IMG/VR virus record: IMGVR_UViG_2778261624_000006
Direction: 5' to 3' (one strand)
From: a virus
Lineage: Duplodnaviria; Heunggongvirae; Uroviricota; Caudoviricetes
Length of the DNA: 35,065 nt
The notes under the pieces were generated by a model. It saw only the letters and a program-made list of their open reading frames with translations, had not been told where the DNA came from and made no database searches. How positions within the stretch are numbered: the stretch's first letter is position 1; each line of letters starts with the position of its first letter. Positions 98-32,791 of this stretch are shown piece by piece. A program made the translations under genes and the position numbers.

Positions 98-673
98 CTA
101 CGGCAGTGCTGGCCATTCAATATCCTGTGCAGTTGACGTATCAACACGGTTCAGCAACACCCGATACTTTTTCCAGGCTTCCAGCAATGAGGTTTCTTCC
201 TCCGTTGCGATTTCCAGATCTACAGCATCCTGAAGTGGCGCAATATGCTCACTGGCTACCTGCATCAGGCTGTTTTTTGTTTCTTCCGCCTCTCGGATCC
301 GGAACAGTTTTTCTGCTTCTGCATCTTTCACCCAGGCTGTGCCGTTCCACTTCTGAAACTCCCCTTCCGGCGATAACCAGGTAACATTTTCCGGTAACGG
401 ACCGAGTTCAGAAATAAATAACGCGTCCCCTGACGCTACGTCATAAACCGTTTTACCCCGATGGTCTTCAACGAGATGCCACGATGCCTTATCACTGTTG
501 AAAACAGCCACAAAGCCAGCAGGAATATCTGGTGGTGCAATATCGGTACTGTTTGCTGGCAGACCTGTATGAGGCGGAATATATGCGTCACCTTCACCAA
601 TAAATTCATTAGTTCCGGCCAGCAGATTATAAATTTTTATGGTCCGTGGTTGTTCACTCATTCTGAATGCCAT
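98..673 (-). CDS. tfa: tail fiber assembly protein (Tfa)
   Basis: 191-aa ORF immediately downstream of and overlapping the side tail fiber gene; sequence recalled as lambdoid Tfa; stop TAG at 98-100. Confidence 0.85.
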
Positions 674-26023: not shown

Positions 26024-27106
26024 ATGAAAAAATTAACAGTGGCAATTTCTGCTGTAGCTGCATCAGTACTGATGGCGATGTCTGCTCAGGCAGCTGAAAT
26101 TTATAATAAAGACAGTAACAAGCTGGATCTATATGGGAAAGTTAATGCCAAGCACTACTTCTCCTCTAATGATGCAGATGATGGTGATACTACTTATGCC
26201 CGTCTTGGCTTCAAAGGTGAAACCCAAATCAACGATCAACTGACTGGTTTCGGTCAGTGGGAATATGAATTCAAAGGCAACCGCGCTGAATCTCAAGGCT
26301 CCTCCAAAGACAAAACCCGTCTTGCATTTGCAGGCCTGAAATTCGGGGACTACGGCTCAATCGATTACGGCCGTAACTACGGTGTAGCATATGACATCGG
26401 TGCGTGGACTGACGTTCTGCCAGAATTCGGTGGCGATACCTGGACCCAAACAGATGTGTTCATGACTGGTCGCACCACTGGTGTTGCAACTTATCGTAAC
26501 AACGACTTCTTTGGTCTGGTTGATGGTCTGAACTTTGCTGCTCAGTATCAGGGTAAAAATGACCGCACTGACGTAACTGAAGCTAATGGTGATGGTTTCG
26601 GTTTCTCCACTACTTATGAGTATGAAGGATTCGGTGTAGGTGCAACCTATGCTAAATCTGACCGCACTAATAATCAGGTTATCTACGGTAACAACAGCCT
26701 GAATGCATCTGGTCAAAATGCTGAAGTATGGGCAGCTGGTCTGAAATATGATGCGAACAACATCTATCTGGCTACCACCTATTCTGAAACCCAGAACATG
26801 ACTGTTTTTGGTAATAACCATATTGCCAACAAAGCACAAAACTTCGAAGTAGTTGCACAATATCAGTTCGACTTCGGTCTGCGTCCGTCCGTTGCTTACC
26901 TGCAATCTAAAGGAAAAGACTTGGGTGCGTGGGGTGATCAGGACCTGGTTGAATATATTGATGTAGGTGCAACCTATTACTTCAACAAAAATATGTCCAC
27001 TTTTGTTGATTACAAAATCAACCTGATTGATAAGAGCGATTTCACGAAAGCATCTGGCGTTGCTACCGATGATATCGTTGCTGTAGGTATGGTTTACCAG
27101 TTCTAA
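26024..27106 (+). CDS. nmpC: phage-encoded general porin (OmpC/OmpF family; NmpC/Lc-like)
   Basis: 360 aa; signal peptide ending AQA; 16-strand porin signature with C-terminal YQF; sits between Q and S on the opposite strand as in DLP12 and PA-2. Confidence 0.9.
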
Positions 27107-28550: not shown

Positions 28551-28713
28551 GATTCCTCCTTGCTGCCAGTCGCAACCATTTTTTATCAACCAGGCTGGCG
28601 GTATATCCGAGCAGTGTTGGTATTTCGGAAGGCTTCAGCTCCGGTTTACGCTTACGACGATCTGGTACTCTGTAGATGTGTCCGTTCATGACACGAATAA
28701 GCGGTGTAGCCAT
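28543..28713 (-). CDS. ninE: NinE-like small protein (56 aa)
   Basis: Hand-translated: [56 protein letters not shown]; start overlaps the ybcN stop (TAATG); below the ORF track size cut-off. Confidence 0.6.
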   Translation of the reverse strand: MATPLIRVMNGHIYRVPDRRKRKPELKPSEIPTLLGYTASLVDKKWLRLAARRNHG

Positions 28714-29168
28714 TACGCCTCCTGCTTGTCGCGGAGCAGCTGGAACTCGCAGCTCTGCGGAATAGTCAGGTGGCAGCCAATATTCACCGCCCAGGCTTCA
28801 ACCTTACACAGGAAGACATACATCTCTCCGGTATCAAGATCGGAGGTATGGCGTAACGACTGGATAGTGGTGATATCACCGGTTACGACATCAACCAGGT
28901 CTTTGGTTTCATAACCGAGATATGTGTGTTTGAGAGCATCTTTTACCCAAGCTGGAGTAGCGAACGTTTTACCCCTGCTGATGAGGTATTCACTGATTTC
29001 GCTGTACCACATGTGGCTGAGTGCATTCTGGGAAAGACTGCGTTTCTCACGCCACGGTTTAAGCACCATGCGAAAGCATTTGCCCTCCTCCAGATAAGGC
29101 TGGATCTGCCGACCGATAGCGGTGAAGTTACCGCGATGTAATTTGATGCCATCTTGTGGGAGATTCAC
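28713..29168 (-). CDS. ybcN: YbcN-like nin-region protein (DLP12 ybcN homolog, DNA base-flipping protein), GTG start
   Basis: 151 aa; matches DLP12 YbcN as recalled; not lambda NinB. Confidence 0.8.
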
Positions 29169-29266
29169 GCTTCACCTCCGCAGAGGTCAAACGCTGGATA
29201 CAATATATCGCAGGTGCATTTCTGCATCTGTGGAGGGAGAAGAGAGTTTGGATTGTGTGTGCGCAT
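29165..29266 (-). CDS. small hypothetical ORF (33 aa), possibly YlcH-like
   Basis: Hand-translated [33 protein letters not shown]; stop overlaps the ybcN start; very short, so weak. Confidence 0.3.
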
Positions 29267-29355
29267 AAACGTCCCCGTTTAGCGCAGAAGTCACCGGAGT
29301 TGTTCAGGCTCCGATGACATGATTATGGCGAGTTGATTATCGCAAATCAAAGGTT

Positions 29356-29712
29356 TTAATTGTGCTTTATTCCTTCAAGCGTTGCCTTCATACCAACCAA
29401 AGAAATGTTTAGCTCTCCAACTTTCTCAGGGCTATATAATTCAGAATGAAGCCAATATTCTGATTTATCTAAACATCTTTTAGCCAGCTCTCGATCAAAG
29501 TCTACGACTTGGGAAGACGCTTCATACCAAAGCCTATAAAGTTTTTCTTCTTCGTTTGGGTTATTAGGCTCACCACGTTTTAATTTTTCAGTATATAAAA
29601 TTGTTGAATAAATCGCAGGAGTTAATCCAGTGATTGCCCTCTGCCGCAGATCGGATTTGTTTGTTATCCACCCCAACAGACGATCTCCCATCCATGTGAT
29701 AATTGTATCCAT
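29356..29712 (-). CDS. hypothetical protein (118 aa), no family recognised; AT-rich gene
   Basis: Clean ORF with plausible start; no transmembrane segment or signal peptide; no motif I can place. Confidence 0.6.
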   Translation of the reverse strand: MDTIITWMGDRLLGWITNKSDLRQRAITGLTPAIYSTILYTEKLKRGEPNNPNEEEKLYRLWYEASSQVVDFDRELAKRCLDKSEYWLHSELYSPEKVGELNISLVGMKATLEGIKHN

Positions 29713-30173
29713 GCTTTAGCCCTTCTTAGTAAATAGTGTGTAGGGCGACTGAAGGACCGAGTTTATGCTTTTTCGCATTGCTTTCAGTTAGTACACCGGT
29801 ATCGCACCGGAAACAATCCTACGGCAAATTGGTTGTCTGACCTCTCGGTTTTTCGTGCATTAACCGATACCCACTACAGTCTCGGCGAAAGCTGCACACC
29901 CCCAGGGTGTACTGGTAGCACTCGGCACAGCCTAGCACGCCACTTTCTTCTCACTATCCAGTCTAATTTTATCCCCTAGTCAGACACTCAGATGTAGTGC
30001 TCCGCAGCGGCATGCGGGGGAATACAAAAACTCGGACAAAATTGGGCCCTCCTTTTTGAATCACTCGCGGGGATGTAGTTATTAATACATGGAAAAAGAT
30101 CTGTTTTCAAATCCAACATTATATGGTTTCAATACCACGGGGTGGCTATGTGTTTCTCATTGTTAATTGGAAT

Positions 30174-30497
30174 CTACTGTAATCGATCCGAACGTAAATG
30201 CGGCAAAACTCGACTCCACTTATCATCCTGCCACGGCCGGAATTTTACATGTGCCGTTTCTCTGGCAAGGATTGCCTGTGCCTTATTGAGTATCTGGGGA
30301 TATTCTTGCTCGATAGAAGTGAAGCGACCAGCTTCACGATGCTCCGCAACCTGAAGAAGAGGAGTAACGTTCTGGTAGGTAATTAACATCACATTCCCTG
30401 CTCGCCATAACCAGGCGAGTGTGCAAAGTTCGTTATCAGTGAATTGTTTTGTGATTGGGTATTGTTGAACTGCTAGAACGAGAACGCCAGCATCCAT
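30174..30497 (-). CDS. hypothetical protein (107 aa), no family recognised
   Basis: Clean ORF; an extended -10 promoter-like element lies upstream; no recognisable motif. Confidence 0.6.
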   Translation of the reverse strand: MDAGVLVLAVQQYPITKQFTDNELCTLAWLWRAGNVMLITYQNVTPLLQVAEHREAGRFTSIEQEYPQILNKAQAILARETAHVKFRPWQDDKWSRVLPHLRSDRLQ

Positions 30498-30575
30498 TGG
30501 CAGTCTCTATAGTAAAACCATAGCTCAGGACGCTTCGTTCAGGATAGATAATTTTATTGTACTTACCTAACTTTC

Positions 30576-30590
30576 TTATTATAGCACGGT
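30576..30590 (-). promoter_or_regulatory. candidate extended -10 promoter (TGcTATAAT) for the 107-aa gene
   Basis: Minus strand reads GTGCTATAATAAG about 80 nt upstream of the ATG at 30497; no good -35 element. Confidence 0.4.
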
Positions 30591-30608
30591 TGAAAAAGTG
30601 ATTATTAC

Positions 30609-32135
30609 TCAAAAATAAACCTCACCATCAACCATATATTTGAGAGTACTTATCGCCTGCTGGGCGGATATTGTTTTCATTAAAGGATAGTGTTTAAAAA
30701 CAATGCCATTCATAAAATAGATATCACAGGTTTTATTATCTGTATTGATTATGATTTTTTCGAATGTTTTATAGGCAAGTGTACGACATAGCTCTCGCCC
30801 ATTTTTACTGGTTAAGTCAATAGCATGAAAATCACCAAGTGAACTCACCGCTTTACTCTTCAAAGTTTTTAATGATACAGAAGCCCTTCGTAATTCCTTA
30901 TCTAATACTCTGATTTTTTCTGCTATAGCGGTAACTTCAGGCGCAACAGATAATGCAGCAATTAAATTATTAATTTTCATGTGGAGCTCAATAATTTTCA
31001 ACTCTAAAGTTTCATTAGCATCTTTCTTGTTTTCAACTGGTTGGATTTTACTACAATTAAAAAGCAACTCATTAATGATATTATAATCAACCAAATCTCT
31101 CTTTATTGATGGCCTGTCACATCGATGCAGTCTTCTCATCGGACAAACATAATAGCCATGCAAACTTCCAGATACCGCATGAACAATCATGGTATTACCA
31201 CAAGCCTCGCACTTCATAACTGTTCGAAGTAGATTTATCAACATAGGATTTTTGCTACTATTGCTAATACCAAAAGGTGCCAACCGAATTTCCTGTACAG
31301 CGTAAAACAAATCATCTGATATGACTCTGGGATAATAGCCAGCGATTTCACTTATTCCTTTACCTCTTGCACGATATGAAGGTACGCATATACCTATCAG
31401 AGCTTTATTCGCTAATAATTTTTCAATTACAGAAGGTCCCCATGCACTTTCTTTTCCTGAGAAATTCTTTACAGCATGATCATTTAAATACTTGGCTATT
31501 GCATTCAATGAGCGCCTTTCCATCCTGAGTTTAAAAATTAGCTCAATAGTTTTCACCCTGTCGGGGTCTGGAACAAAAGCCGTTCTTTTGTCATCTAAGG
31601 AGAGCCATCTCGGACAAGACGCCGTCATAATCGTACCTGATTCCAGTGCATCCTGCCGTTTTTTCTTCCATGATAATTTAACCCGACTTGACTTTATCTC
31701 GCTTTCTTCATTTGCCCTTTGTGCTATAAGTATGGCTTTTATTAATGAATATGGCTCATTCAAAGAGTCAATATTATAGACTGTATTGTCGCAAAGAGTT
31801 ATAACATCAATACCGTGATTCAAAATCAATTTCAGACGTTCAATCGCTTCACCGACTTTTTCTCTTGAAAGTCTGTCCAGACTTTCAACTAACAATGTAG
31901 TTCCTGGCAATATATAACCATGCTCTATAGCATCTAAAAATTCCGAAAAAGCTCCTGATTGTGCATGCTTTCCTTTGAATGCACTTAATCCTAAATCTTC
32001 ATATGTTATGGTATCAAGATAATAATCACTATTTACCTTTAACCATTCAGCAATAAGTCTTCTCTGTCGGTTTAATGAGTCGCCAGACATCTGACCTGGT
32101 GATGAAAATCGCATATATGCTATGGCTTTTTTCAT
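30609..32135 (-). CDS. ybcK: large serine recombinase (resolvase-type catalytic domain, recombinase domain, zinc ribbon); YbcK-like
   Basis: N-terminal AIAYMRFSSPGQ...R motif of serine recombinases; Cys cluster CEACGNT...YYVCP...C; 508 aa, the typical large-serine-recombinase size. Confidence 0.85.
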   Translation of the reverse strand: MKKAIAYMRFSSPGQMSGDSLNRQRRLIAEWLKVNSDYYLDTITYEDLGLSAFKGKHAQSGAFSEFLDAIEHGYILPGTTLLVESLDRLSREKVGEAIERLKLILNHGIDVITLCDNTVYNIDSLNEPYSLIKAILIAQRANEESEIKSSRVKLSWKKKRQDALESGTIMTASCPRWLSLDDKRTAFVPDPDRVKTIELIFKLRMERRSLNAIAKYLNDHAVKNFSGKESAWGPSVIEKLLANKALIGICVPSYRARGKGISEIAGYYPRVISDDLFYAVQEIRLAPFGISNSSKNPMLINLLRTVMKCEACGNTMIVHAVSGSLHGYYVCPMRRLHRCDRPSIKRDLVDYNIINELLFNCSKIQPVENKKDANETLELKIIELHMKINNLIAALSVAPEVTAIAEKIRVLDKELRRASVSLKTLKSKAVSSLGDFHAIDLTSKNGRELCRTLAYKTFEKIIINTDNKTCDIYFMNGIVFKHYPLMKTISAQQAISTLKYMVDGEVYF

Positions 32136-32319
32136 GGTGACACCTGCTAACGTATGCTTTTATAAACCTTAGTGGTGGGATATAATTTTTGTTTAATTTT
32201 TATTTAAAAAGACAATTAAGGTCACATTATCTTGAATATACAACAATAATCGTATTGCAATTTTCTTACGCCATAATCTTGAAAGCACAAAAGAATACAT
32301 AAAAAAATAAAGACATTAA

Positions 32320-32360
32320 CAAAAAGCATAAAACGAGGCTCATATAAATATAAGAGCCTC
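32320..32360 (-). terminator. putative rho-independent terminator downstream of emrE
   Basis: Hairpin GAGGCTC-loop-GAGCCTC followed on the minus strand by a T-rich run GTTTTATGCTTTTTGTT. Confidence 0.5.
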
Positions 32361-32391
32361 CATATTTTAGTCGTTTAGAAACAAATTATTT

Positions 32392-32724
32392 TTAATGTGG
32401 TGTGCTTCGTGACAATAAATTAATAACCAACACACCGGCACAAATCAACATCATGCCTATAATGGCTGGCAGGTCCAGCCGTTGGCCGAAAAGTCCCCAT
32501 GACAGTAAGCTAATCAGGACAATACCGACTCCTGACCAGATAGCATAAGCAATCCCTGTAGGAATATAAGCCAGCGTCTGAGCTAATAACCAGAATGATG
32601 CACAATAACAAATAATTGTACCAACAGATGGCCATAACCGTGTAAAACCTTCTGAAAACTTCATTAAGGTTGTACCAATGACCTCTGCAAGTATTGCACC
32701 ACCAAGATAAATATAAGGGTTCAT
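32392..32724 (-). CDS. emrE: SMR-family multidrug efflux transporter EmrE (110-aa reading from MNPYIY; ORF track extends to 32778)
   Basis: Four-transmembrane SMR protein with conserved Glu in TM1 (AILAEVIGT); matches E. coli EmrE as recalled. Confidence 0.92.
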   Translation of the reverse strand: MNPYIYLGGAILAEVIGTTLMKFSEGFTRLWPSVGTIICYCASFWLLAQTLAYIPTGIAYAIWSGVGIVLISLLSWGLFGQRLDLPAIIGMMLICAGVLVINLLSRSTPH

Positions 32725-32791
32725 AGAATATTCTTTCCTGTTCAAACTGGAGAGAATTGTACTACAGTTTGAACTCAACTCACCTGTTTCA

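Follow-up and report, generated by a model that had tools for sequence, protein, structure and literature searches.

Phage genetics has its founding model in the lambdoid phages of Escherichia coli. Structured RNAs of large size are rare; ribozymes, riboswitches and RNA cages are among several that proved important once they were studied. ROOL and GOLLD RNAs, which tend to adjoin tRNA genes, are close to the subject of the present study. They are large 'ornate' structured RNAs, often carried on prophages, and have been the subject of cryo-electron microscopy work (bioRxiv 10.1101/2024.12.08.627333). Enterobacterial prophages also encode small RNAs (sRNAs), including DicF, IsrK, STnc100, the Pas sRNAs and AgvB/AsxR (bioRxiv 10.64898/2026.05.13.724894). 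Here we examine a 35,065-nucleotide (nt) stretch of Caudoviricetes DNA (IMG/VR record IMGVR_UViG_2778261624_000006; hereafter the window), a lambda-like prophage that occupies the DLP12 position in E. coli, and within it the slot between the serine recombinase gene ybcK and ybcN, a region of interest that is identical in strain KSC207. An original prediction, made from the letters of the window, had described this slot as a cargo of two genes, encoding proteins of 107 and 118 amino acids (aa), with a long spacer. The spacer was taken as empty; it holds an RNA gene, predicted to encode a structured non-coding RNA of 332 nt that runs on the minus strand from 30074 (5' end) to 29743 (3' end) and scores 359 bits with covariance model R1.

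The RNA element was found in 159 of 5,426 complete E. coli genomes, as well as in Klebsiella phages and in Enterobacter and Obesumbacterium prophages. Further copies were obtained from exact-block scans of IMG/VR and metagenomes and from look-ups of homologues of the 118-aa protein. A full-length copy is present at 84 loci, representing 31-34 distinct sequences and approximately 14 lineages. A 19-mer scan of a species-representative genome collection did not recover the element, returning only a chance match in Aquibacillus. In the IMG/VR prophage L048 (3066-3396) the RNA is broken from about nt 305 by unrelated insertion sequence-like DNA, and in the divergent lineage L074 (620-1148) a tRNA gene and an isrJ sRNA match are located just upstream of the RNA module. 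The length of the RNA is 330-332 nt in every copy at identities of 64-100%, with invariant blocks of up to 49 nt alternating with variable, covarying helix segments. In its core, the spacer shows 78-83% identity to DNA of Klebsiella phages Kp4856-1 and Kp4862-1 and of an unrelated E. coli prophage, all of which have different genes on either side of it. Across the lineages, the genes upstream of the RNA are rha, a MazG-like pyrophosphatase or other orphans, and those downstream are orphans of 178, 183, 177, 93 or 118 aa that are unrelated to each other; in lineage L057 no cargo gene follows the RNA and a NinB-type gene is next. Outside E. coli, the gene that most often follows the RNA is that of the 178-aa protein (MNEAWAAITAG...), which has two hydrophobic helices, one N- and one C-terminal, and no Pfam, PHROGs or PADLOC match. 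None of the proteins encoded downstream of the RNA had a match in Pfam or PADLOC, and four alternative cargo proteins likewise lacked a PADLOC match. The comparison of lineages indicates that the RNA is conserved independently of its neighbouring genes, and because it is kept while the genes on either side are swapped or decay, it appears to be the selected, functional core of the region.

The pattern of substitutions makes it very probable that the element is a genuine structured RNA. RNAalifold analysis of 12-13 representatives gave 89-97 pairs, 17-22 of them with compensatory double changes. Across the alignments analysed, 96-97% of cells are paired. In a covariance-model alignment of 34 distinct sequences, 25 of 97 pairs (188 cells) have changed on both sides and 96.1% of cells are paired, as against 15.4 pairs (70.7 cells) and 90.7% of cells in shuffles of the same alignment, none of 500 reaching the observed values. 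Controls that preserve phylogeny, in which the 3' partner was slid by 1-3 columns, gave 3-8 covarying pairs. The best-supported helices are nt 128-133/183-188, 137-139/155-157, 166-170/174-178, 189-197/204-212 and 259-269/275-284, with six of the nine pairs of helix 189-197/204-212 covarying through up to five pair types. The RNA is assigned to the minus strand of the window because numerous invariant G-U pairs would become A-C on the opposite strand. The model comprises a 5' domain (nt 1-104) and a larger 3' multi-helix domain (nt 112-329) that is closed by a long-range helix (112-117/324-329).

The same alignments point to a non-coding element. Six-frame translations of three lineages revealed no conserved reading frame, each frame being stopped in at least one lineage, and the 88 variable columns are spread 33/26/29 over the codon positions, with no 3-periodicity. 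A protein-coding or pseudogene origin of the spacer was rejected for want of a conserved frame or periodicity, a 108-aa antisense open reading frame (ORF) being open in one lineage only. A leader peptide was also considered, based on a 19-codon ORF behind a perfect AAGGAGG, and rejected: the Shine-Dalgarno sequence and frame are lost in L074 and L076, and the frame is changed in L057 and L104. An ORF for a hydrophobic toxin of about 50 aa is not conserved in the element, and Rfam searches gave no match to Sok (RF01794). No Rfam 15 family matched at E <= 1 in 2.7 kb of sequence; a search of 481 nt at E <= 10 returned a single, chance match of 16.9 bits to a small nucleolar RNA, and in seven other lineages no Rfam family overlaps the element at gathering thresholds. 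A tRNA/tmRNA scan found none, nor did Tandem Repeats Finder (29100-30700, score >= 30) identify a repeat. A candidate trans target, the 12-nt complementarity of RNA nt 112-123 to ybcN mRNA (28858-28869), was dismissed, being at chance level and not conserved in 14 other lineages. Inspection also led us to dismiss a nut-like boxA/boxB reading of the AUGC-GAAAAA-GCAU hairpin: neither its loop size nor the L076 variant is compatible with this reading, and a boxA is lacking. Keyword searches of the literature found no description of the element, and three conserved blocks of the RNA, searched as DNA and as RNA, occurred in no relevant paper of the searchable literature, the lone match being an unrelated eukaryotic paper.

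Candidate transcription signals lie at both ends of the element in most lineages. A promoter-like site at 30081-30110 (minus strand) comprises TTGAAA (30110-30105), TG (30089-30088) and ATTAAT (30086-30081), and ends 6 nt before nt 1 of the RNA. Three diverged upstream types share this layout: a TTG-type -35-like hexamer (TTGAAA/TTGTAT/TTGATA), 17-18 nt, an AT-rich hexamer that is usually preceded by TG, and a gap of 5-7 nt before the first conserved base of the RNA. Most lineages have a strong intrinsic terminator, beginning 3-10 nt past RNA nt 332, its stem sequences differing between lineages and its pairing kept. The next gene in these terminator-bearing lineages has its ribosome-binding site within approximately 25 nt and no promoter of its own; the 178-aa gene (L072, L081, L076 and others) begins about 52 nt downstream of the terminator. 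An intrinsic terminator is present neither in the window lineage nor in any other lineage with the 118-aa gene, and is likewise missing before the 93-aa and 177-aa genes. In the window, a 30-nt linker (29713-29742, minus strand) that contains AAGAAGGG and no terminator connects the 3' end of the RNA to the start codon of the 118-aa gene. A riboswitch-like terminator/antiterminator was rejected by eye, the pairing of GUCGCC with GGCGG not being conserved, for example in L026. Promoter use, the transcript ends and a mode of action in which the RNA stands alone are inferences.

As its constant partner, the 118-aa gene has the RNA encoded in the spacer. The gene (29356-29712, minus strand) was found in 160 complete E. 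coli genomes, where it co-occurs with the RNA (159 genomes). All homologues at least 69% identical to its product, from E. coli, Enterobacter bugandensis, Obesumbacterium proteus and uncultured relatives, are encoded behind an RNA that ends 30-33 nt upstream and has no terminator, a linkage of RNA and gene that holds throughout this group. Homologues at 51% identity or less occur in other contexts, and a covariance-model search found no RNA near them. In 59 of the complete E. coli genomes in which RNA and gene co-occur (L037-type) a 137-bp deletion has reduced the 118-aa gene to a 66-aa stub (phrog_8527), with just the last ~25 codons of rha left upstream of the RNA. The RNA in these genomes is full length and 95-99% identical, and it therefore does not depend on the 118-aa gene.

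The 118-aa protein itself belongs to phrog_12412 and is a 'hypothetical protein' in RefSeq. It has no match in Pfam, NCBIfam or PADLOC and no informative fold match, and AlphaFold2 predicts a four-helix bundle (predicted local distance difference test score 78.7). The protein is acidic (isoelectric point 5.7) and lacks a nucleic-acid-binding signature. Its close relatives form 21 clusters, and a profile search extended the family to 351 representative clusters, mostly stand-alone proteins of 120-135 aa with no Pfam domain. The family motif is A..A...ET..Y / E..L..LW..A / D..LA.RC..K..YW..P..W, with A33, T37, Y40, W62, K83 and W87 invariant. Assignment as a HEPN ribonuclease was rejected, as Foldseek matched HEPN chains at E ~0.8 only and the invariant residues do not include an R-x(4-6)-H. 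One family member (P0073, 309 aa) is fused to a TIR_2 domain, another is encoded 18 nt behind a 495-aa TIR and ORF6C protein (L113:2496-4438), and a third is situated among HigB, ImmA-like and P4 cII genes; these contexts are hints, nothing more, of a role of the family in conflict systems. With this, the analysis delineates an orphan protein family of wide distribution, occasional members of which are joined to TIR domains.

On the other side of the RNA, the 107-aa ORF (30174-30497, minus strand) matches Pfam P22_AR_C (PF10548) over residues 15-85 (E = 1.1e-15), and the PHROG Ant (anti-repressor) families match it at their C-termini only. Intact homologues of 202-249 aa are found at the same place in phages IdasGreatGrand, PhiR26_1 and PhiR5_1. 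The 202-aa IdasGreatGrand protein consists of Bro-N (residues 17-100) and P22_AR_C, and the 107-aa ORF is 85% identical to its residues 100-202 and aligns to that part only; the N-terminal Bro-N/Rha/KilA-N type domain of such a protein of approximately 200-300 aa has no counterpart in the ORF. DNA homology to intact rha genes stops at window position 30484. The junction DNA of the ybcK module (30485-30599) supplies both the ATG of the ORF and its extended -10 promoter, and is common to phage 4A7 (shared stretch 30326-32296) and not to K-12 or IdasGreatGrand. Based on these alignments, the 107-aa ORF is a 5'-truncated rha/Bro-type antirepressor gene: it has the P22_AR_C domain in common with the P22 Ant/Rha/BRO-family antirepressors, and differs from them in lacking the Bro-N of the intact homologues and in taking its start codon from foreign junction DNA. 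The truncated rha form with the ybcK junction is present in 344 of the 5,426 complete genomes, and a common RefSeq 'gene', the P22AR C-terminal domain protein beside ybcK, is re-labelled here as a truncation product. Joining of the emrE-ylcJ-ybcK module to rha at about 30485 would have removed the N-terminal Bro-N half and left a P22AR_C-only ORF of 107 aa behind a junction-borne extended -10 promoter, and the simplest reading is that the ORF is a relic of this event. The genes of the large serine recombinase (ybcK), a small ORF (ylcJ) and the EmrE efflux protein (window 30609-32778) move as a single block inside the early-right operon, and in the 344 genomes this block terminates within rha at the fixed junction 30485-30599.

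We propose that the slot is a mosaic of three mutually unrelated elements, a relic antirepressor, a self-contained RNA gene and the gene of a 118-aa four-helix protein, which is probably the best explanation of the region as a whole. In the lysogen, a sigma-70-type promoter of its own would drive minus-strand transcription of the 332-nt RNA, like that of a moron, and in most lambdoid prophages that carry it a transcript of approximately 350 nt would be released at the intrinsic terminator. As there is no terminator in the window lineage, the transcript would there continue into the 118-aa gene, which starts 30 nt downstream, and the RNA would double as promoter and 5' leader of that gene. Our best guess is a stand-alone prophage non-coding RNA that here also serves as a 5' leader, and it may act as RNA in its own right, whether in trans or by providing the scaffold for an RNA-protein particle. 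This stand-alone action we consider an approximately even prospect, tilted slightly in its favour.

A number of observations weigh against this explanation. The 5' 104 nt of the RNA are almost invariant, which leaves the helices there largely untested by covariation, and the sequences are related by descent, so that counts of changes are not counts of independent events. The single-sequence folding energy is unremarkable relative to shuffles (z = -0.7 to -0.8 for the minus and -0.07 for the plus strand), thermodynamic stability thus giving no signal, and the consensus structure lies 10-18 kcal/mol above the predicted minimum of each sequence, and far more for the two most divergent lineages. 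The promoter-like site is weak by consensus, its -10 being without the canonical A at position 2, and was not called by a simple consensus scan. Lastly, the RNA is always sense to the early-right operon and directly before a terminator or gene, which a cis-only role fits. The folding result, together with the region being unannotated in all records, is what would be expected were the spacer decaying, functionless DNA, such as a dead gene or a recombination linker, with an apparent structure that is an artefact of sequence kinship. This is very improbable given that the exact length and 49-nt invariant blocks are kept at 64-83% overall identity, that 25 pairs covary compared with 3-8 in the register-shifted, phylogeny-keeping controls, that promoter-like site and terminators are both retained, and that the element is kept in at least four genera while neighbouring genes turn over. 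The invariable sense orientation at the head of the nin region is more suggestive of a cis-acting regulatory leader with no free-RNA function, either a ligand- or protein-sensing attenuator or a put/EAR-like antitermination element, that decides read-through past the terminator into the cargo gene and the nin/Q genes. Consistent with such a leader, the terminator and the ribosome-binding site of a promoterless gene follow closely in most lineages, and several lineages, that of the window among them, have the RNA fused directly with the gene that comes next. However, the genes behind it are mutually unrelated or, in L057, absent, unlike a riboswitch regulon; no conserved alternative pairing of the RNA 3' end with the terminator was seen by eye; the RNA is intact where the downstream gene has decayed; and put and EAR have only about a fifth of its length. 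We consequently regard an attenuator or antiterminator that acts purely in cis as the less likely reading, with a minor though appreciable share. An obligate pairing of RNA and 118-aa protein in an accessory system of two components, such as a defence or anti-defence module of RNA and protein whose protein member binds the RNA or is controlled by it, is more doubtful still. In at least four lineages of three genera the linkage is strict and a terminator is always absent, the slot is a hot spot for cargo, and the 118-aa family includes the TIR fusion and the members beside TIR or HigB and ImmA-like genes described above. Against this, the RNA is found more often with other genes or none than with the 118-aa gene and persists despite its deletion, distant family members (<= 51% identity) lack the RNA, the protein is acidic and without a nucleic-acid-binding signature, and the TIR links amount to two cases out of 351.

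Regarding the 107-aa ORF, the alternative to a relic is a domesticated, independently expressed P22AR_C protein that, for instance, interferes with repressors or antirepressors of related phages. This alternative touches the 107-aa ORF only and is compatible with the mosaic explanation for the rest of the slot. It can draw on the promoter that the original prediction had noted and that was recovered here, a perfect extended -10, TGcTATAAT (TG 30586-30585, TATAAT 30583-30578, minus strand), 80 nt upstream of the ATG. It can also draw on two findings that count against a relic: the ORF stays open and annotated in copies that are 92-96% identical, across the 344 genomes, and two truncated copies differ with a synonymous divergence (dS) of 0.42 and a non-synonymous divergence (dN) of 0.055, giving an omega of 0.13. 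The latter result is ambiguous, as recombination with intact alleles could give the same pattern and better explains a dS of 0.42. Moreover, the start codon and first ~10 residues derive from junction DNA, the ORF has a weak Shine-Dalgarno sequence, one of its diverged copies stops early, at 99 aa, and phage 4A7 retains just the first ~57 codons of the rha fragment, followed by an esterase cassette. A domesticated protein is therefore unlikely on balance, if not markedly so, and a relic is preferred. Far less probable than this is the idea, favoured by the original prediction, that the genes of the 107-aa and 118-aa proteins constitute a two-gene system of defence, toxin-antitoxin or anti-defence type that has yet to be described. 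The two ORFs are indeed co-oriented on the minus strand of a variable slot and separated by 461 bp, the 107-aa ORF has its own promoter, and 95 complete E. coli genomes, as well as phage Turner, carry the entire 1.6 kb. However, the 107-aa ORF represents part of an antirepressor of 202 aa, an independent RNA gene separates it from the 118-aa ORF, and the two do not travel together across related prophages, the 107-aa form being found in 344 genomes and the 118-aa gene in 160. IdasGreatGrand has the 118-aa gene beside an intact rha, and L037-type prophages retain the last ~25 rha codons only. The statement that neither protein has an assignable motif was right for the 118-aa protein, which profile searches and structure prediction leave as an uncharacterised four-helix bundle, and wrong for the 107-aa ORF with its P22_AR_C remnant. 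Nothing here shows a defence, toxin-antitoxin or anti-defence activity, and the 118-aa, 107-aa and ylcH-like ORFs have no match in PADLOC-DB 2.0.

The early-right operon of the window runs on the minus strand in the order O, P, a ren-like gene, emrE, ylcJ and ybcK, followed by the 107-aa ORF, the 461-bp gap, the 118-aa ORF, a ylcH-like ORF, ybcN, ninE, ybcO, rusA, ylcG and quuD. The upstream neighbour of the 107-aa ORF is the 508-aa serine recombinase gene ybcK (30609-32135, minus strand), the spacer between the two small ORFs extends from 29713 to 30173, and ybcN (28713-29168, minus strand) forms the downstream border of the slot. The ylcH-like ORF of 33 aa (29165-29266, minus strand; RefSeq annotation) overlaps the ybcN start and has K-12 ylcH at the same position, so that a ylcH homologue is still present in the window lineage. 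In agreement with the original prediction, the equivalent slot of K-12 holds ybcL, ybcM and ylcH, and the 118-aa gene is AT-rich, with a GC content of 0.35-0.41 compared with approximately 0.5 in the flanks. K-12 homology ends at 29351 and picks up again at 30600, the replaced segment being 29352-30599.

The right edge of the variable slot is formed by a conserved linker upstream of ylcH/ybcN (29183-29351); K-12, phage 82 and 4A7 cease to be homologous at 29351-29354. A consensus scan placed a promoter-like site within it (29350-29322, minus strand). The linker sequence of approximately 105-140 bp (window 29183-29325; L004:5093-5230; L002:5018-5121) also includes the annotated -35/-10 of phage 82. 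Second, direct copies of the linker are located upstream of the rha module in IdasGreatGrand and PhiR26_1, the linker thereby bracketing the cargo, and linker sequence flanks the RNA module on both sides in lineage L074. From its distribution it looks like a recombination linker through which the modules of the slot are exchanged. The slot is accordingly a recombination hot spot, the right boundary of which is a conserved linker that is duplicated around cargo modules in some phages. Elsewhere, in other E. coli and in phages, its content is ybcL-ybcM, an esterase, a 169-aa orphan, or a HEPN protein with a partner, which upholds the view of the original prediction that this is a variable cargo position. 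The region between ren and ybcN thus appears confirmed as a hot spot for accessory and defence cargo. In E. coli 03_3469 a HEPN-domain protein and its 133-aa partner are encoded in the same or adjoining slot (L116:1398-2194), in PhiR26_1 a PD-lambda-1 defence gene is situated near the slot (L002:5430-6932), and in phage 4A7 the cargo is an esterase (L102:1386-2429). Other features of the prophage include an intact OmpC/NmpC-type porin gene (window 26024-27106, plus strand), the K-12 copy of nmpC being disrupted, and the iss serum-survival gene. A full-length Rfam IS009 RNA match (RF02111, 226.7 bits; window 132-330, minus strand) lies at the far end of the prophage near a tail-fibre assembly gene.

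The large RNA gene at the start of the lambdoid nin region, supported by covariation, appears to be undescribed and is absent from Rfam 15. The RNA is tractable, as it is present in cultured E. coli strains and in the isolated phages Turner, IdasGreatGrand and Klebsiella Kp4856-1, and the terminator and the downstream gene are each present in some natural variants and absent from others. More tentatively, and with the balance against it, the RNA may represent a new functional class, a prophage-expressed ornate RNA with its own activity. Possibilities include a ribozyme, a particle scaffold, a sensor or effector in phage-phage or phage-host conflict, and a new processive antiterminator. Should this be so, an RNA would have been overlooked in the best-studied phage group and host, where annotation pipelines see an empty spacer.

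Compared with described systems, the 332-nt RNA is similar to ROOL and GOLLD in being a long, multi-helix, strongly conserved non-coding RNA on temperate-phage DNA that is recognised via covariation, the function of neither being known. It differs in being shorter, in matching no Rfam family, in having been sampled so far only in lambdoid prophages of Enterobacterales, and in occupying a fixed site at the start of the nin region, with a putative promoter and terminator of its own. The proposed arrangement of promoter, non-coding RNA, intrinsic terminator and promoterless protein gene, on a mobile element, is comparable to that of type III toxin-antitoxin systems (ToxIN, CptIN, TenpIN). However, the RNA is not a tandem repeat array, the proteins encoded downstream are mutually unrelated while the RNA is conserved, and no cognate, co-evolving endoribonuclease toxin gene was found downstream of it; the 118-aa protein is predicted to be a four-helix bundle rather than a ToxN-like endoribonuclease, and the terminator is absent in the window. 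HK022 putL/putR and EAR are likewise structured sense-strand RNAs of an early operon; the 332-nt RNA resembles them in lying just upstream of a terminator and of the terminator-rich nin genes, and differs in its approximately five-fold larger size, the lack of similarity, its own putative promoter, and a position that is not just after pL/pR. Riboswitches and attenuators differ in that the RNA has no consistent class of downstream gene and no conserved mutually exclusive pairing. With the enterobacterial prophage sRNAs it shares the character of an apparently independent non-coding gene in a lambdoid prophage with a terminator in most lineages; these are base-pairing RNAs of 50-200 nt with few hairpins, in contrast to approximately 18 helices in two domains here, and no conserved complementarity of the 332-nt RNA to phage genes was found. 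Based on these comparisons, we rate the 332-nt RNA as a new RNA family of a known general kind.

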